From positions 1-14,018 of the forward strand of contig JBCBKN010000082.1 of NCBI GenBank assembly GCA_038521775.1: a stretch of 14,018 bases of DNA, in the 5' to 3' direction. How positions within the stretch are numbered: the stretch's first letter is position 1; every line of letters starts with the position of its first letter. The translations under genes and the position numbers were made by a program. The notes under the pieces were generated by a model that saw nothing but the letters and a program-made list of their open reading frames with translations, was not told the origin of the DNA and ran no database searches. Source of the stretch: Pseudomonadota bacterium. GTDB taxonomy: Bacteria; Pseudomonadota; Alphaproteobacteria; Rhodobacterales; Rhodobacteraceae. Positions 2,627-7,261 of this stretch are shown here, piece by piece.

Positions 2627-2700
2627 CGGAGGCAAGGAGAGGAGTCGAACCTCTAACCAGCTGGCTTGCGCCAAATGCTCTACCATTGAGCTACGTTGCC
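2627..2700 (-). tRNA. tRNA-like gene with canonical acceptor, D and T arms but a non-canonical anticodon region; possible pseudo-tRNA or tRNA-like element, anticodon not assignable
   Basis: Minus-strand read: GGCAACG-TA-GCTC-AATGGTA-GAGC-AT-TTGGC-GCAA-GCCAG-CTGGTT-AGAGG-TTCGACT-CCTCT-CCTTGCC-T-CCG. The D arm (GCTC/GAGC), T arm (AGAGG/CCTCT with a TTCGACT loop) and 7 bp acceptor stem (one C-C mismatch) are intact. No register gives a 5 bp stem with a 7 nt loop carrying U33. Instead a 5 bp stem capped by the GNRA tetraloop GCAA forms. Confidence 0.5.
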
Positions 2701-2907: not shown

Positions 2908-4449
2908 CTACGCCATGCCGGAGGGGTGCGGAGCCCTGTCGACTGCGGCCATCTCGGCACGCGCCAGCGCCTCCATCAGCTCGGCCCGCATCGCCATGTG
3001 GTCCGGATCGTCCCAAAGATTGCGGAACTCGCCGGGATCGGTTTGCAGATCGTAAAGCTCGCCCCAGCTCAGCCCGTGAAAAAGCGTCAGGCGCCAGCGC
3101 GCCGTGCGCAGGCTGTGCACCCGTGGCGCGCGGCCCAGCGCGGGCATGTCGCGCTGGTTGTCAAACTGGATGAAGGCCGCGTCACGGCCGGTTGCAAGCA
3201 GATCCTGCCCCTGCACGCCGAGGGCTGCTTCGATTCGCGCGCGCTCGAGAATCGTCGGGCCGATATCGTGGGTCTGGCCGATGGCACCGGTCCGGCCCGT
3301 GGTCGGCCGTTCCGGATCCGCCCAGATGAAGGGCACCCGGGTGAGCTGCTCATACTGCTCGGCGCCTTTCAGCAGCAGACGGTGATCGCCCAGATGATCG
3401 CCGTGATCGGAGGTGAAGACCGTCACCGCCTCGGCCGCCTTGGGGGCCGTGCGCACCTGCCCGACCGCATCGTCGATCATGCCGATCATCCCGCAGGTCA
3501 GTGCCCGCGCCTCCTGCGCCTCGCGCGCGCTCACCGCAATCGTGCCCATGCCGCCAAGTGCGGCCTCGCCCGCGGCACGCTGGGCGATCATGCCGGCCAC
3601 ATGCGGCGGCGGCGTCCAGTCATTGACCGAAAACGCCTCGGGCACCGCCATCTCCTCGGGCCGGTAAAGGTCCCAATAGCGCCCGGGCGGGTTGAAGGGA
3701 TGGTGCGGGTCGGGGAGGGAGACCATCAGAAAGAAGGGCTGATCGCCGGTCTGGCCGCGCAGCCAGGCCTCGGCCCGGTCGGCGATATAGCGGGTGACGT
3801 AGAGCTCCTCGGGCAGGGCGGTGCGCACCGCCTGCGGGCAGATATAGTCATGCGGGATCTCGTTTTCGGCCCCCACAAGCTGGTCGGCCAGAGGCTCGCG
3901 CGCCAAAAGCCAGCTGCGGTAATCCCCGCCGCAGAAATCGCCATGGCCGGTGACCAGCTCGACATGGTCAAAGCCATAGAACGGGGTGCCGGGCGCGGCC
4001 TGACCGGGCGCCTCCTGCCGGTAGCCGGCATCATGCCCATGGCGCATCGCCTCGGCCAGATCGCCCGCGGCGCGATGATAGCCAGGGCGCGTCTGCGGCG
4101 GTTGCAGGATGGCCGGCCGGCCGGTGAAGTTCTGCAGATGGCTTTTGCCGATCAGCGCCGTGCGATAGCCCGCATCGCGCAGCAGCTCCACAAAGGTGAC
4201 ATGCCGTGTGTCGAGCGGAATGCCATTGGAGCGCACCCCGTGGCTTGAGGGCAGGCGCGCGGTCATCAGGCTGGCCCGGTTGGGCATGCAGACCGGGCTT
4301 GCCACATAGAACCGGTCCCAGACGGTGCCGGCCGCGGCGATGGTGTCGATATTGGGGGTGCGCAGCACCGGATGCCCCATACAGCCCAGATAATCGGCGC
4401 GATGCTGGTCAGTGATGAAGAGAATGAAACTCGGCCGGCGATCGGTCAC
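2908..4449 (-). CDS. Sulfatase family protein (Cys-type, C-x-P-x-R motif CMPNR), about 513 aa, with no signal peptide
   Basis: ORF 2908..4635(-) trimmed to GTG at 4447-4449, which has a GAGGA RBS 7 nt upstream and overlaps the upstream gene's TGA stop (ctGTGAcc). The N-terminus PSFILFITDQHRADYLGCMGHPVLRTPNIDTIAAAG...ASPVCMPNRASLMTAR...LIGKSHL is the classic sulfatase N-terminal domain with a formylglycine-target motif. Confidence 0.85.
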   Translation of the reverse strand: MTDRRPSFILFITDQHRADYLGCMGHPVLRTPNIDTIAAAGTVWDRFYVASPVCMPNRASLMTARLPSSHGVRSNGIPLDTRHVTFVELLRDAGYRTALIGKSHLQNFTGRPAILQPPQTRPGYHRAAGDLAEAMRHGHDAGYRQEAPGQAAPGTPFYGFDHVELVTGHGDFCGGDYRSWLLAREPLADQLVGAENEIPHDYICPQAVRTALPEELYVTRYIADRAEAWLRGQTGDQPFFLMVSLPDPHHPFNPPGRYWDLYRPEEMAVPEAFSVNDWTPPPHVAGMIAQRAAGEAALGGMGTIAVSAREAQEARALTCGMIGMIDDAVGQVRTAPKAAEAVTVFTSDHGDHLGDHRLLLKGAEQYEQLTRVPFIWADPERPTTGRTGAIGQTHDIGPTILERARIEAALGVQGQDLLATGRDAAFIQFDNQRDMPALGRAPRVHSLRTARWRLTLFHGLSWGELYDLQTDPGEFRNLWDDPDHMAMRAELMEALARAEMAAVDRAPHPSGMA

Positions 4450-4979
4450 AGCAGATCCTCGATGAACAGACCCAGATATTGCGCGCGTCCCGACACGCCG
4501 GCCTTTCGAAAAACGGCATTCGACTGTGCCTTGATGGTGCCTTCGCTGGTTTTGCGCAACTCTGCGATTTCCGAATTGGCAAAGCCCTTGAGCATGAAGA
4601 GCGCCACATCGCGCTCGGACGGTGTCAGCCGCCATTGCGCGAACCGGTCCTGCACCACGCCGTGAAATTCCGAGGAGGCCGCGCGCAGACGGTCGGCCGC
4701 GCGCTTGCGCTGGCGCAGCAGCGTTGCGGTCAGGATGGCGCCCATCGCCATGCCCAGCAAGAGCCCGGTGGTGGCCATGATCTCCAGCGCCTCATGCCAG
4801 CTCCAGCTCACCGGCGCGTCGCGCCAGCCGAAAATCGAGGCGGCGAGGTCATAGACAAAGAACACGCCGCAGAGCGTCTGAAGCGTCGCAACCAGGATCA
4901 CCGCGACCGGGCCGCCCCAGCCGCCCTGCAGGTCGCGCGGTCCGGTGACGGGGGGAGGCTGATGCTGGGGCTCAGTCAT
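4446..4979 (-). CDS. LuxR/GerE-family HTH transcriptional regulator anchored by two N-terminal TM helices (about 177 aa); alternative start 3 codons upstream at 4988
   Basis: C-terminus LTPSERDVALFMLKGFANSEIAELRKTSEGTIKAQSNAVFRKAGVSGRAQYL is a GerE-type HTH. N-terminus has two hydrophobic helices (PVAVILVATLQTLCGVFFVYDL and IMATTGLLLGMAMGAILTATLL) flanking a short Trp-rich loop. The ORF-track N-terminal extension (MSNRALAHPKRTT...TRIQTRIQ...) is an out-of-frame read of the upstream gene's repeat tract and is rejected. The start ATG overlaps the upstream gene's end (ATGACTGA). Confidence 0.75.
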   Translation of the reverse strand: MTEPQHQPPPVTGPRDLQGGWGGPVAVILVATLQTLCGVFFVYDLAASIFGWRDAPVSWSWHEALEIMATTGLLLGMAMGAILTATLLRQRKRAADRLRAASSEFHGVVQDRFAQWRLTPSERDVALFMLKGFANSEIAELRKTSEGTIKAQSNAVFRKAGVSGRAQYLGLFIEDLL

Positions 4980-5526
4980 CGCCGCCATCTGAATCTGAGC
5001 CCGAATCCGAATCCGAGCCCGAGTCGCTGTCGGAATCCGAGTCGCTGTCAGTGCCCGAATCGCTGTCAGTGTCGGACCCGCTGTCTGTATCCGTGTCTGT
5101 ATCCGTGTCTGAGTCAGTGTCCGGGCCGTCCGCATCGTCCCGATCTGCGTCGTCCCTGTCGTCTGTGTCGTCCCGGTCTGTGTCGTCCCCATCATCCCTG
5201 TCGGCCGGGTCTCTGGAGCGATCCTCAAAATCCTCGGGATCGCGGCCGGGCTGGAACGGGCTGAAATCGCGGTTGTTCTCTTGGGATGTGCCAGCGCTCG
5301 GTTGGACAAGATCGCGCAGCACTTCTCCGGTGCGGGGGTTGATGATCAATTCACGCCGGTATCCATCGCGGGTCGCCTCGATCTGCACCCGGCCGAGCCA
5401 GGTGCGCTCGACCTCCACAATCTCATAGCCCTGCTCTTCAAGGAATGTGATCGCCGCCGCGGTGGCATCGGCCCGCGACGGTTCGGCCGCAAAAAGCAGC
5501 AGCATGATCAGCAGGGCACGGTGCAT
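4972..5526 (-). CDS. Secreted PepSY-like domain protein with a roughly 85 aa Asp/Ser/Thr-rich acidic repeat tail ending ...SDSDGGDD (184 aa)
   Basis: Sec-type signal peptide MHRALLIMLLLFAAEPSRA. The PepSY-like core ITFLEEQGYEIVEVERTWLGRVQIEATRDGYRRELIINPRTGEVLRDLV follows. The tail runs DRDDGDDTDRDDTDDRDD...DTDSDTDTDTDTDSGSDTDSDSGTDSDSDSDSDSGSDSDSGSDSDGGDD. A GGGGAG RBS lies 6 nt upstream of the ATG at 5524-5526. Confidence 0.75.
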   Translation of the reverse strand: MHRALLIMLLLFAAEPSRADATAAAITFLEEQGYEIVEVERTWLGRVQIEATRDGYRRELIINPRTGEVLRDLVQPSAGTSQENNRDFSPFQPGRDPEDFEDRSRDPADRDDGDDTDRDDTDDRDDADRDDADGPDTDSDTDTDTDTDSGSDTDSDSGTDSDSDSDSDSGSDSDSGSDSDGGDD

Positions 5527-5549
5527 TCAGGCTCCCCGGCTAAAGCTGT

Positions 5550-5579
5550 GGGTCCCACCCGGCGGCGCAGATGGGACCC
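5550..5579 (-). promoter_or_regulatory. Intercistronic hairpin (8 bp stem gggtccca/tgggaccc, 14 nt loop) between the DRDD-repeat gene and the PepSY-like gene; possible partial terminator or attenuator
   Basis: Seen directly in the 68 bp spacer between the stop at 5595 and the start at 5526. It is followed on the minus strand by ACAGCUUUAGCC (weak U content) and precedes the GGGGAG RBS. Confidence 0.3.
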
Positions 5580-5594
5580 GATCCCGCGATGGGC

Positions 5595-5894
5595 TTAATC
5601 ATCGCCGCCGTCACTGTCACTGTCACTGTCGGAGTCGCGATCGTCCCGGTCATCCCTGTCGTCGCGATCATCCTTGTCGTCCCTGTCGTCGCGATCATCG
5701 CGGTCGTCCCGATCATCGCGGTCATCCCGATCGTCGCGGTCCAGCAGCCCGACGGTGTTTTTGGCAGCGGTGTCGAGCGTGTGACCGATCCGGCTGAAAA
5801 GGCCCGCAATGCCGGTCTCATCCGACGCGGCCGGGGTTGCGAGCGGGGCGAGCAGCACGGCCAGGGCCAGGGCTGGGAGTTTGAGCTGGGTCAT
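5595..5894 (-). CDS. Small secreted protein (99 aa) with about 11 tandem DRDD tetrapeptide repeats and a C-terminal DSDSDSDSDGGDD
   Basis: Signal peptide MTQLKLPALALAVLLAPLATPAAS, a 30 aa unique segment, then (DRDD)n with one DKDD variant. The AGGACAAGGACG RBS region lies upstream of the ATG at 5892-5894. The underlying DNA is a 12-nt-unit tandem repeat plus (gtcact)3. Confidence 0.7.
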   Translation of the reverse strand: MTQLKLPALALAVLLAPLATPAASDETGIAGLFSRIGHTLDTAAKNTVGLLDRDDRDDRDDRDDRDDRDDRDDKDDRDDRDDRDDRDSDSDSDSDGGDD

Positions 5895-5958
5895 CTGTGG
5901 CGTCCTTGTCCTGTTCGACCGACGGCGGGATGCCGTGGCCGGTCCGACAAAACGCGGT

Positions 5959-5986
5959 CCGGCATGGCATGCGCCATTGGCCGGCA
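5959..5986. promoter_or_regulatory. Near-perfect palindrome CCGGCATGGC-ATGC-GCCAT(TG)GCCGG plus adjacent direct repeat CGGTCCG-N9-CGGTCCG, 45-90 bp upstream of the DRDD-repeat gene; candidate operator
   Basis: Inverted repeat seen directly. The sequence from 5939 is ccggtccgacaaaacgcggtccgg. Its position fits a regulator-binding site in the module's promoter region. Confidence 0.25.
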
Positions 5987-6040
5987 GTTTGGGGCGCGGC
6001 TTCTAAACCCTTGTGAGCATACAATAAACCGGGGTTTAGC

Positions 6041-7261
6041 CTAAAGATCCTCGTTCAGGGCCTCGGCCACGGTGAAGATGTCCTTGTCGCCGCGCCCGCA
6101 CATATTCATGACCAGCAGATGGTCGGCGGGCAGATCGGGCGCGATCTTGGCGACATGGGCCAGCGCGTGCGAGGGTTCGAGCGCCGGGATGATCCCCTCG
6201 GTCCGGCAGCTCAGCTGGAAGGCCGCCAGCGCCTCCAGATCGGTGACCGAGACATATTCGACCCGGCCGGTGTCGTGCAGCCAGGCATGCTCGGGCCCGA
6301 TGCCGGGATAGTCGAGCCCGGCCGAGATCGAATGCCCCTCCAGGATCTGGCCGTCCCCGTCCTGCAAAAGATAGGTGCGGTTGCCATGCAGAACGCCGGG
6401 GCGGCCGCCGGTCAGGCTGGCGCAATGCTCCATCCGGTCATCGACGCCATGCCCCCCCGCCTCGACCCCGATGATGCGCACCGCGCTGTCGTCGAGGAAG
6501 GGGTGAAACAGCCCCATCGCGTTCGACCCGCCGCCGATACAGGCGACCAGGCTGTCGGGCAGGCGGCCTTCGCGCTCGGCCATCTGGGCCTTGGTCTCGC
6601 GCCCGATCACCGATTGAAAATCGCGCACCATCGCCGGGTAGGGATGCGGGCCGGCCACCGTGCCGATGCAGTAGAACGTGTCGCGCACATTGGTCACCCA
6701 GTCGCGCAGCGCCTCGTTCATCGCATCCTTGAGCGTGCCGCGCCCGGCGGTCACCGGCACGACCGTCGCACCCAACAGCTTCATGCGAAAGACATTGGGC
6801 TTTTGCCGCTCAACATCGGTCGCGCCCATAAAGACCACGCAGTCCAGCCCGAAGCGCGCGCAGACCGTGGCCGTGGCAACCCCATGCTGGCCCGCGCCGG
6901 TTTCGGCAATGATCCGGGTCTTGCCCATGCGGCGCGCAAGCAGGATCTGGCCCAGCACATTGTTGATCTTATGCGCGCCGGTATGGTTGAGCTCATCGCG
7001 CTTGAGATAGATTTTCGCACCGCCGAATGCCTCGGTCAGCCGCTCGGCAAAGTAAAGCGGCGAGGGCCGGCCGACATAATGCGTCCAGAGATCCTGCATC
7101 TCGGCGGCAAAGGCCGAGTCGGTCCTGGCCTTTTCATACTCGGCCTCAAGGTCGAGGATCAGCGGCATCAGGGTTTCGGAGACAAAGCGCCCGCCGAACA
7201 TGCCGAAGCGGCCCTTTTCATCCGGCCCCGTCCGGTAGGAATTGATCCTGTCACTGGCCAT
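6041..7261 (-). CDS. trpB: Tryptophan synthase beta chain (406 aa)
   Basis: [33 protein letters not shown]...[11 protein letters not shown]...[16 protein letters not shown]...[11 protein letters not shown] is unmistakable TrpB with its PLP-binding motifs. ORF 6041..7588 trimmed to the ATG at 7259-7261, which has a GGGAGG RBS 6 nt upstream. Confidence 0.95.

Follow-up and report, generated by a model that had tools for sequence, protein, structure and literature searches.

Does the highly charged tandem repeat in this stretch of DNA (14,018 nucleotides, hereafter the window) belong to a real gene and, if so, what may its product do? The 99-aa open reading frame (ORF) that an earlier note had proposed here was borne out on the minus strand, at 5894..5595 including the stop codon, and this region is a genuine protein-coding gene, termed gene 1 (Table 1). 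GC contents at codon positions 1, 2 and 3 of its non-repeat part (0.71/0.51/0.82) resemble those of bona fide genes of the window, and the ATG of its orthologue in a sister MAG (L018) is preceded by the same ACAAGGACGCCACA context. An independent gene call on the Logan contig L001 yielded exactly the same 99-aa protein. L001 is 99.83% identical to the window, with 8 SNPs that all fall into the sulfatase gene. Because it is nearly identical and carries the same repeat, it is uninformative on repeat instability at very short divergence. Rfam revealed no RNA family in the region, and a consensus scan found neither a terminator nor a convincing promoter there.

Table 1 Position of gene 1, its parts and the adjacent genes in the window
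Feature	Position	Strand	Basis
Gene 1 ORF, secreted RDD-repeat protein, 99 aa	5595..5894	-	Stop TAA at 5595-5597; ORF list
Shine-Dalgarno-like AGGA, 8 nt 5′ of the gene 1 ATG	5903..5906	-	Read from sequence
Predicted Sec/SPI signal peptide, residues 1 to ~22-24, MTQLKLPALALAVLLAPLATPAA(S)	5823..5894	-	Heuristic features
Amphipathic helix, residues 27-51, TGIAGLFSRIGHTLDTAAKNTVGLL	5742..5816	-	AlphaFold2 single-sequence model, hydrophobic moment
Array D + 11 x [R/K]DD + RD, residues 52-87 (D52-D87)	5634..5741	-	TRF, autocorrelation, codon table
(SD)4-GGDD end	5598..5633	-	TRF
12-bp GC-rich hairpin in the 68-nt gene 1/gene 2 spacer	5550..5579	-	RNA fold; no clear U-tract
Gene 2, secreted PepSY-like protein with long acidic tail, 184 aa	4972..5526	-	Sub-threshold Pfam, AF2, homologues
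Gene 3, membrane-anchored LuxR/GerE-type regulator, 180 aa (or 177 aa)	4446..4988	-	Pfam GerE, hydropathy

A repeat unit of 12 nt, encoding DRDD tetrapeptides with a +/-/-/- charge periodicity, had been proposed earlier. Neither the unit nor the periodicity was found. Tandem Repeats Finder (TRF) returned periods of 9, 18, 27 and 45 over 5634-5741 and none at 12. Nucleotide self-identity was 0.65 at lag 9, 0.73 at lag 18 and 0.77 at lag 27, compared to the background value of 0.33 at lag 12, and amino-acid self-identity peaked at lags 3, 6 and 9 but not at lag 4. The repeat unit is 9 nt, encoding the tripeptide [R/K]DD with the charge pattern +/-/-, and a 27-nt higher-order unit is superimposed. 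Eleven consecutive basic-acidic-acidic units are present, one of them with Lys in place of Arg (K74), followed by SDSDSDSDGGDD. The number of about eleven repeats, one with a Lys, therefore stood, while their reading as DRDD and DKDD did not. The span given for them, 5598-5722, left out the first two units and took in the non-RDD tail, the array in fact running from 5741 to 5634. It makes up 36 of the 99 residues (36%), and the entire acidic tail 48 of 99. That the protein ends in a highly charged acidic repeat tail was confirmed.

At the DNA level the array is imperfect. Adjacent 9-nt copies are 65-77% identical, the longest stretch that matches itself exactly is 7 nt when the sequence is shifted by 9 nt and 20 nt when it is shifted by 27 nt, and CGC, CGG, AGG and AAG as well as GAC and GAT codons are mixed within the units. 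With 11 perfect units here and 24 in the sister genome, the RDD pattern is far beyond chance. Within the (SD)4-GGDD end TRF detected a perfect 6-nt repeat, GTCACT x3.5 (+ strand, 5610-5630), and the rare Ser codon AGT is used for three of the four Ser residues in the tail, compared to 2% of the Ser codons in the genes of the window. The ending …SDSDGGDD is common to genes 1 and 2, with 22 nt at 86% identity that extend 4 nt beyond the stop codon. Known Ca2+-binding motifs include the RTX nonapeptide GGxGxDxUx and the EF-hand-like DxDxDG loop. The gene 1 protein sequence contains no RTX nonapeptide. A single DSDSDG stands at the C-terminal end of the protein in the window, and it is not conserved, since L018 has DSDRGDD in its place and a Thermohalobaculum MAG (L002) has DDGRGDD.

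These two MAGs provided the orthologues of gene 1, which were recovered by synteny. L018 shares about 87% nucleotide identity with the window. Its protein carries 24 perfect RDD units in frame and is 84% identical to the window protein over the alignment, with 43 of the 51 N-terminal residues identical; the Thermohalobaculum orthologue has about 9-11 units. The array expands and contracts in frame, from 11 units here to 24 in the sister strain and about 10 in Thermohalobaculum, and the earlier view of an expansion-prone array thus held. All length differences come in steps of 9 nt and preserve the frame, and each unit reads R/K-D-D in the protein (11 in the window, 24 in L018, ~9 in L002) despite mixed Arg and Asp codons. 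Repeat numbers fluctuating with frameshifts had been named as the mark of a non-coding repeat, and this check favours a coding one. With a 9-nt unit and in-frame variation the array does not behave like a phase-variable on/off element; its change is length variation and not on/off switching. Compared to L018, dN/dS values, which are based on fewer than 20 substitutions, were 0.29 for the non-repeat part of gene 1 and 0.21 for its mature unique part, the corresponding values of gene 2, the LuxR-like gene and trpB being 0.13, 0.10 and 0.06, respectively.

The description of the product as a small secreted protein was supported insofar as it is probably exported by the Sec pathway. By heuristic features, the predicted signal peptide comprises K5, a hydrophobic core (L6-A19) and a 10-residue hydropathy maximum of 2.7, and candidate cleavage sites are A-A-S/D and T-P-A/A (cleavage at the slash). 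The protein has no Cys, hence no lipobox, and no twin-Arg. The predicted signal peptide is nearly identical in L018, and the architecture matches in L002. Helix 27-51 is the sole non-repetitive part of the mature protein, the unique mature segment being only ~27 residues long. In the AlphaFold2 (AF2) single-sequence model this helix has the highest pLDDT of the chain (~67-77) and the remainder is coil. Its hydrophobic moment is 1.45, compared to 0.52 for shuffled sequences, and was reached by 0 of 2000 shuffles; the counterpart in L002 gave p=0.0035. All three orthologues share the motif G-[IL]-A-x6-G-x3-D-x-A-A in the helix, and outside the close clade no recognisable conservation was found for it. 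The mature product of ~75 residues consists of one amphipathic helix and a disordered, net-negative polyampholyte tail, D(R/K-D-D)11RD(SD)4GGDD, with a net charge of -18 for the mature protein and a GGDD end.

Database searches agreed with the earlier statement that no domain can be recognised in the unique segment. Pfam gave no match to the 99-aa protein at E<=0.01, and sequence searches against Pfam, NCBIfam and PDB returned only weak low-complexity matches (RNase E, ZrgA). A word search of the full-length protein against 5.8 billion clusters yielded six matches, all of low complexity, e.g. the R/D/E tail of ribosomal protein S6, and none with the N-terminal 55 residues alone. Exhaustive phmmer against 1.84 billion representatives gave nine matches at E<=1e-3, all of them RDE/RDD low-complexity regions in unrelated proteins. 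Metagenome scans with a PepSY-like profile and with RDD patterns found no relatives; the latter picked up 600 stretches with DDRDDRDD or RDDRDDRD, of which 0 passed tblastn. A relationship of the unique segment to the PepSY-like gene 1 products of other genera was ruled out by profile-profile comparison (hhalign probability 1.4%). A PepSY domain (Pfam PF03413 or PF13670) spans about 55-60 residues and folds as one helix on a four-stranded antiparallel sheet, and the AF2 model of the gene 1 protein is a single helix plus coil.

Gene 1 opens a conserved cassette of three genes in Rhodobacterales (Paracoccaceae/Roseobacter-group genomes), in which a small secreted acidic-tail protein is followed by a PepSY-like acidic-tail protein and a two-TM LuxR/GerE regulator. 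This context, including the …SDSDGGDD end of the next gene, had been missed by the earlier note. Gene 1 is co-oriented with and directly upstream of the PepSY-like gene (gene 2, with the invariant residues RTWLGR…E.LRD) and the GerE gene (gene 3), and the cassette usually lies directly downstream of trpF-trpB. The gene order is common to the window, L018, L002, L008, L009, L010/L011, L012, L013, L014 and L015, and its 3′ end also occurs in L016. The hairpin between genes 1 and 2 was not called a terminator by the consensus scan and could function in attenuation or in mRNA stability.

Gene 2 matched PF13670 (PepSY_2) at E=0.0017, under the gathering score. Its AF2 model (pLDDT 84) shows a helix and four strands; the best PDB match is 4exr, and YpeB (5boi) is also among the matches. 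Several of its 22 homologues are named ‘PepSY domain-containing’, and the folded domain is well conserved in this family. The tail of gene 2 contains DRDD-x motifs and TD/SD repeats before the SDSDGGDD end. Gene 3, named ‘LuxR C-terminal-related transcriptional regulator’ by NCBI and also called on L001, has hydrophobic segments at ~24-50 and ~67-92 and exposes a short loop to the periplasm, while its C-terminal part is an HTH; its similarity to the NCBIfam LIC13292 family stayed under the threshold. It overlaps both neighbours, gene 2 by 17 nt and the sulfatase gene downstream by 4 nt. The cassette, which probably serves to sense something beyond the cytoplasm, encodes neither a kinase nor a receiver domain.

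Several genera have as gene 1 a PepSY-like paralogue of gene 2, the two domains being homologous by hhalign (probability 97.3%, E=2e-11), and the present lineage keeps only the signal peptide, helix and acidic tail. The domain occurs in gene 1 of L010, L012, L013 and L014 and is absent here, while L008 and L015 have domain-less acidic versions. An acidic tail was found in 10 of 11 sequenced gene 1 products; among 33 module proteins the last residue is D or E in 30, and 13 have GDD or GDDD at the end. L009 lacks the tail in genes 1 and 2 alike. Tail composition of genes 1 and 2 is closer within than between genomes (permutation p=5e-5, or p=5e-4 without L009), a co-variation that could alternatively stem from gene conversion or from a mutational or codon bias of the whole genome and not from a shared function. 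In Pikeienuella (L003) the regulator stands beside trpB and genes 1 and 2 are absent, and L004 and L006 have gene 2 but no gene 1. Because of these absences gene 1 must be dispensable in some lineages.

The closest functional model may be DbfQ of Vibrio cholerae, a small Sec-exported PepSY protein that binds to the kinase DbfS at its periplasmic domain (PMC12714742). DbfQ-like modules, e.g. PA2658/PA2659 upstream of BqsRS in P. aeruginosa, often contain two tandem PepSY genes (PMC12714742). These modules resemble the cassette in having small Sec-exported proteins (predicted here), often from two tandem genes, immediately upstream of and co-oriented with a membrane signal transducer; a PepSY-type fold is present in gene 2 and, in other genera, in gene 1. 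In contrast to DbfQ, the gene 1 protein has no PepSY domain. DbfQ-like modules adjoin a two-component system, whereas the transducer of the cassette is a two-TM LuxR/GerE one-component protein with a tiny periplasmic loop rather than a histidine kinase that carries a sensory domain. The long acidic low-complexity tails of the cassette do not figure in the DbfQ description in the consulted passages of PMC12714742.

A precedent for cation binding near PepSY is given by the lanpepsy protein LanP and by UipA, acidic PepSY proteins that bind lanthanides, uranyl and Fe3+ via carboxylates (PMC9988556; UipA cited therein). They are small, exported or extracytoplasmic and strongly acidic like the gene 1 protein, but their acidic residues sit on folded PepSY domains, whereas its charge lies in a disordered repeat without a domain and an Arg occurs at every third residue. 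Rhodobacterales proteins of the type ‘ERTWLGRIRIEA…TGEVLRD’ (Cognatishimia activa, Candidatus Rhodobacter oscarellae; hypothetical or ‘PepSY domain-containing’) belong to the same cassette and share with the gene 1 protein a D/E/G/S-rich C-terminal tail, often with a GDD(D) end. They combine a PepSY-like domain with a near-pure acidic tract; the gene 1 protein has no such domain, and its RDD array is regular and zwitterionic. The Ser-Asp repeats of staphylococcal Clf/Sdr proteins are likewise imperfect short coding repeats with in-frame copy-number variation in a disordered acidic region. They belong to other organisms with another cell envelope, however, and the gene 1 protein has neither adhesin domains nor a sorting signal; this likeness is compositional, and the NCBIfam low-complexity matches to gene 2 are weak and far under the family cut-offs.

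Given a genuine ORF, tail and cassette, we hold with moderate confidence that the gene 1 product is a disordered periplasmic polyanion or ampholyte that serves as an accessory to a DbfQ-like module of periplasmic protein and membrane regulator. After Sec export it would stay in the periplasm and, together with the gene 2 protein, serve the membrane regulator as an accessory or as an input. The amphipathic helix may dock to a partner protein or to a membrane surface. The charged tail would be the functional element by its bulk length, charge and occupancy by multivalent cations (Ca2+/Mg2+, trace metals) and not by a fixed fold. Cation binding or polyanion mimicry by the tail is plausible, and the module is possibly responsive to cations. 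One Arg per three residues halves the net charge, however, which should weaken divalent-cation binding compared to the poly-D/E tails of other genera, and a DbfQ-like docking surface is not evident because the LuxR-like regulator exposes only ~15 periplasmic residues. A bolder version, which we regard as doubtful, takes the cassette as an envelope-sensing system with one or two disordered periplasmic polyelectrolyte tails as sensor, in place of a folded ligand-binding domain. Their cation or ionic-strength state would be relayed via the PepSY-like domain of gene 2 and the gene 1 helix to a LuxR-type factor with almost no periplasmic domain, and expansion from 11 to 24 repeats would tune the set-point between strains.

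The tails could also act physically. As a periplasmic or released disordered polyelectrolyte, independent of a LuxR-type regulator that merely controls expression, the protein might serve as a fixed-charge/Donnan buffer, as a store of cations, as an ‘entropic bristle’ against aggregation or to modulate adhesion to minerals or surfaces. The periplasm of marine and saline Rhodobacterales meets high Ca2+ and Mg2+, and the carriers of the cassette are such bacteria. Conservation of composition and length but not of sequence, the two-fold length difference between close relatives and the similar composition of the tails of both secreted proteins would fit such a role. We nevertheless consider it rather unlikely: the gene is tightly linked, over a wide range of genomes, to that of a membrane-anchored transcription factor, which together with the gene overlaps suggests a signalling unit, the conserved fold of gene 2 with its invariant residues implies a specific interaction, and the conserved amphipathic helix of gene 1 suggests docking.

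Alternatively, gene 1 could be a decaying remnant of a PepSY-like paralogue that lost its folded domain, with a tail that drifts and slips neutrally and a product that, if there is one, serves no function by itself. The distribution of the domain among gene 1 versions, the losses in L003, L004 and L006, the faster evolution of gene 1 compared to its neighbours, the unstable repeat number (11 vs 24) and the absence of homologues in the protein databases searched are in line with decay. Nevertheless ORF, signal peptide, helix and strict RDD pattern are retained in the window, L018 and Thermohalobaculum, across a distance at which gene 2 has only 51% identity in its PepSY-like domain. Moreover, dN/dS is 0.2-0.3 and not ~1, every unit is RDD despite synonymous variation, frameshifts and stops are absent, and domain-less acidic gene 1 versions persist also in L008 and L015. 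Decay is thus an unlikely explanation.

That the repeat is non-coding or that the true product stems from another frame or strand, such as the 157-aa I/V/P-rich ORF on the + strand (5571-6044) or the M/T/G/I-rich ORF on the minus strand (5540-5821), is very unlikely: several long alternative ORFs do span the repeat because most frames there have no stop codons, the gene table of L018 lists an out-of-frame 122-aa ORF (the counterpart of 5540-5821) in place of the RDD frame and the 99-aa sequence has no entry in the clustered protein collection, but codon-position GC is atypical in the alternative frames (0.72/0.58/0.63 for the antisense ORF), these have no conserved start or signal peptide, and it is only in the RDD frame that the N-terminal region is conserved with dN/dS <1 and that the repeat is perfect in the protein yet variable at third codon positions, the same frame being picked by the independent call on L001. 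Codon-position GC and a lack of conservation ruled out both the hydrophobic ORF on the antisense strand and the ORFs out of frame.

Gene callers thus mis-frame gene 1, as in the L018 table, or skip it, its product being missing from large protein collections, and as a consequence the finding of ‘no homologue’ for such repeat proteins can partly be an annotation artefact. The cassette is widespread in marine Rhodobacterales, has a conserved site by trpFB and is entirely uncharacterised; our literature search found no paper describing a PepSY/membrane-LuxR cassette of this order. If the accessory role of gene 1 holds true, it would extend the recently recognised use of small periplasmic proteins as inputs to membrane signal transducers, as in DbfQ/PepSY modules, to a membrane-tethered one-component regulator of the LuxR type, and the active part of the accessory proteins would be a disordered charged repeat of evolvable length.

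The window DNA is chromosomal and GC-rich (~66%), and all of its recognisable genes lie on the minus strand. Three small co-oriented genes occupy the interval between trpB and a sulfatase gene; the first (gene 1) encodes the 99-aa RDD-repeat protein, and genes for a PepSY-like secreted protein (gene 2) and a LuxR/GerE-type membrane regulator (gene 3) follow. The spacer between trpB and gene 1 folds into a long imperfect hairpin (MFE -59.5 kcal/mol, z-score -2.4 versus shuffles), and an Rfam search of this spacer gave no match. The 68-nt spacer between genes 1 and 2 contains a GC-rich hairpin of 12 bp that has no clear U-tract and could be an attenuator or an mRNA-stabilising element setting the gene-1:gene-2 expression ratio. 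A 4-nt overlap links the sulfatase gene to the 3' end of the LuxR-like gene in the window and in the contig of a sister MAG (L018). Only these two carry the sulfatase gene at the 3' side of the cassette, DUF2237 or other genes being found there in other genera, and it may be a lineage-specific target or a passenger of the cassette. All SNPs (8/8) between the window and the near-identical Logan contig L001 fall inside this gene. Between the SPFH gene and the sulfatase there is a tRNA-like gene (Rfam tRNA, 48 bits), which ARAGORN lists as 'tRNA-???' with the anticodon 'ca', none being assignable.

Coordinates of features in the window and in compared loci
Feature	Sequence	Coordinates	Strand
tRNA (guanine-N7) methyltransferase-like gene, aroA, cmk, rpsA	window		-
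trpF	window	8467-7610	-
trpB	window	ends at 6041	-
trpB-gene 1 spacer (146 nt)	window	5895-6040	-
Gene 1 (99-aa RDD-repeat protein)	window	5894..5595	-
[R/K]-D-D array	window	5741..5634	-
(SD) repeat	window	5610-5630	-
Spurious ORF, I/V/P-rich, antisense	window	5571-6044	+
Spurious ORF, M/T/G/I-rich, out of frame	window	5540-5821	-
GC-rich hairpin	window	5550-5579	-
Gene 2 (PepSY-like)	window	4972..5526	-
Gene 3 (LuxR/GerE-type)	window	4446..4988	-
Sulfatase	window	4449-2908	-
SNPs versus L001	window	3717-4002	
tRNA-like gene	window	2628-2700	-
SPFH protein gene	window		-
Out-of-frame 122-aa ORF, M/T/G/I-rich	L018	4437-4805	+
Sulfatase	L018	5839-7377	
Gene for small protein downstream of LuxR-like gene	L002	6419-6904	
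Gene for small protein downstream of LuxR-like gene	L003	6553-6969	
LuxR-like gene directly after trpB	L003	4684-6498	
176-aa membrane protein gene and LuxR-like gene	L005, L007	~5380-6590	

The 99-aa frame is, judged from its sequence, a gene, and comparison with other genomes gives the strongest evidence for this. The GC content at codon positions 1/2/3 of its non-repeat part (0.71/0.51/0.82) agrees with that of the real genes of the window (0.66-0.72/0.38-0.55/0.81-0.85); the antisense 157-aa ORF shows 0.72/0.58/0.63. The ATG is preceded by AGGA, 8 nt upstream. A miscalled frame is effectively excluded. Long spurious ORFs run across the repeat because it contains no stop codons in the other frames, and the gene table of L018 lists one of this kind in place of the RDD protein.

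L018 (GCA_039188165.1) was reached via a cluster look-up of the neighbouring LuxR-type protein and is fully syntenic with the window at ~87% DNA identity. Its RDD frame encodes a 132-aa orthologue with the same signal peptide, identity in 43 of the 51 N-terminal residues and the C-terminus RDSDRGDD. Against L018, the target has a dN/dS of 0.29 over codons 1-51 and of 0.21 over codons 25-51; gene 2 has 0.13, the LuxR-like gene 0.10 and trpB 0.06, and all these values rest on few substitutions. A further orthologue from a Thermohalobaculum MAG (L002, Paracoccaceae) has 127 aa, a signal peptide, a short helix-like segment and ~10 DDR units. The pattern D-x2-G-[IL]-A-x6-G-x3-D-x-A-A…G-L is common to the three orthologues.

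The target reads MTQLKLPALALAVLLAPLATPAASDETGIAGLFSRIGHTLDTAAKNTVGLLD(RDD)7KDD(RDD)3RDSDSDSDSDGGDD. The earlier note had described a 99-aa secreted protein with about 11 DRDD tetrapeptides (+/-/-/-), encoded by a 12-nt unit at 5598-5722. Of this, the gene, the 11 units and the export signal hold; the period has to be replaced, and so have the coordinates. Tandem Repeats Finder reported periods of 9, 18, 27 and 45, and none of 12, over 5634-5741; nucleotide self-identity of the array rises from 0.65 at lag 9 to 0.73 at lag 18 and 0.77 at lag 27, against 0.33 at lag 12, and protein autocorrelation peaks at lags 3, 6 and 9. The unit is therefore a tripeptide [R/K]-D-D of charge +/-/-. Eleven consecutive units cover residues 53-85, flanked by D52 and R86-D87, which fixes the array span; the interval 5598-5722 leaves out the first two units and takes in the (SD)4GGDD end.

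That the array is expansion-prone, as the same note proposed, is borne out by 24 perfect RDD units in L018 versus 11 in the window (+117 nt). Repeat number thus varies in frame and in multiples of 9 nt, the opposite of the frameshifts that would have spoken for a non-coding repeat; the array of L001 (99.83% identical to the window) is the same as in the window. The 27-nt higher-order unit has the best score in the window and in L018 alike, and slippage thus proceeds in multiples of 9 nt, probably mostly via 27-nt blocks. In the window, L018 and L002 all units are RDD in protein, apart from one KDD in the window, while their codons are mixed (Arg CGC/CGG/CGA/CGT/AGG, Asp GAC/GAT). The array remains under selection as protein. 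In the (SD) part of the tail a 6-nt unit with the codon AGT is repeated perfectly, and AGT makes up just 2% of Ser codons in the genes of the window. Recent expansion by slippage is suggested for this part, separate from the RDD array, which is older and degenerate.

The view of a secreted acidic protein without recognisable domain also holds: mature net charge is -18, and Pfam, NCBIfam and PDB yielded no domain. Searches of protein clusters with the full-length target or its N-terminal part and two metagenome scans returned only low-complexity R/D/E stretches or nothing, and exhaustive phmmer against 1.84 billion representatives found no relatives beyond such stretches. The target and both orthologues are absent from the clustered protein collection. 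This lack of relatives is in part due to annotation, as the out-of-frame ORF listed in L018 illustrates. Single-sequence AlphaFold2 gave one helix (residues 27-51, pLDDT ~67-77) and modelled the tail as coil at low confidence. Strong amphipathicity marks this helix (hydrophobic moment 1.45 versus 0.52 for shuffles; 0/2000 shuffles as high), and its Thermohalobaculum counterpart is amphipathic too (p=0.0035).

A genome scan with the LuxR-type neighbour as query found six related loci. Downstream of trpB, L002 carries the RDD-type protein gene, a PepSY-like gene with a (DDAG)n tail and a LuxR-like gene. Searching with a gene-2 domain profile brought up 22 homologues, several named 'PepSY domain-containing protein', with invariant RTWLGR…E.LRD residues in all and D/E/G/S-rich tails in most. 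Their neighbourhoods always show, in this order, a small gene without Pfam match, the PepSY-like gene and a GerE-type gene, usually directly 3' of trpB or trpF; the carriers are Ca. Rhodobacter oscarellae, Cognatishimia activa and several metagenomic contigs. Gene 2 of the window is modelled, at pLDDT 84, with a helix and a four-stranded sheet. Among PDB structures 4exr matches it best, with YpeB also listed, and 4exr is the top HHpred match for a PepSY protein in the lanpepsy paper (PMC9988556). The PDB scores are weak (E ~0.05, TM 0.51) and the Pfam PepSY_2 match is below threshold, so that 'PepSY-like' is the fitting term. Gene 3 encodes two hydrophobic segments separated by a ~15-residue loop; the second is followed by a basic stretch, and a GerE helix-turn-helix lies at the C-terminus. 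Its product is a membrane-tethered one-component regulator.

Gene 1 consists of signal peptide, PepSY-like domain and D/E tail at four loci (L010/11, L012, L013, L014); in the window, L018, L002, L008 and L015 it has the signal peptide and an acidic tail but lacks the domain. It is tailless in L009, as is gene 2 there, and has an acidic 3' end (…GGRGGDDD*) in the truncated locus L016. By hhalign, the PepSY-like domains of gene 1 are homologues of those of gene 2 (probability 97.3%, E=2e-11), and the unique segment of the target shows no similarity to the PepSY-like gene-1 domains (probability 1.4%). Two Hyphomicrobiaceae MAGs carry, ahead of the LuxR-like gene and in place of the PepSY-like gene, a gene for a 176-aa multi-pass membrane protein that looked by eye like a cytochrome b561-type protein. 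The protein encoded downstream of the LuxR-like gene in L002 and Pikeienuella (L003) appears to be cytoplasmic and combines a conserved N-terminal domain (…GDLVxLxSGSMRMxVEAVDG…) with a long tail rich in R/G/D (GGDRDGGGKPYRGGDRD…), a further charged low-complexity tail of this neighbourhood.

The tails of genes 1 and 2 resemble each other within genomes: the mean composition distance of the last 30 residues is 0.33 within versus 0.49 between genomes (permutation p=5e-5; 5e-4 without L009). In the window both proteins end in …SDSDGGDD, and the DNA ends are 86% identical over 22 nt, including 4 nt beyond the stop. The gene 2 tail of the window spans 90 residues with DRDD-x motifs, (TD)n and (SD)n repeats; in L018 a rearranged tail carries (DRDDA)4 and fewer SD/TD units (protein of 165 aa versus 184 aa). 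Module proteins end in D or E in 30/33 cases and in GDD or GDDD in 13/33. The pairing could stem from shared function, from gene conversion or from genome-wide bias.

We propose that the membrane LuxR-type regulator may be served from the periplasm by the products of genes 1 and 2, as accessory or input proteins. Their charged tails would do the work, via length, charge and possibly multivalent-cation occupancy, and in the lineage of the window the amphipathic helix of gene 1 would dock in place of the lost PepSY-like domain. The closest precedents in the literature are DbfQ and LanP/UipA. DbfQ, a small PepSY protein that is exported, attaches to the periplasmic domain of DbfS, a kinase whose output it shifts, and DbfQ-like modules are widespread, often with two tandem PepSY genes (PMC12714742). 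LanP and UipA are acidic PepSY proteins whose carboxylates bind lanthanides, uranyl and Fe3+ (PMC9988556). Against an input module, hardly any surface of the regulator faces the periplasm, Pikeienuella lacks genes 1 and 2, L004 and L006 lack gene 1, and an Arg in every third place should make cation binding weaker. Gene 1 might instead be a functionless remnant of a PepSY paralogue. Its product might also be a bulk polyanion with no signalling role. The target belongs to an uncharacterised yet conserved Rhodobacterales cassette and is a variant on the known pairing of small periplasmic protein and membrane regulator, with acidic low-complexity tails.
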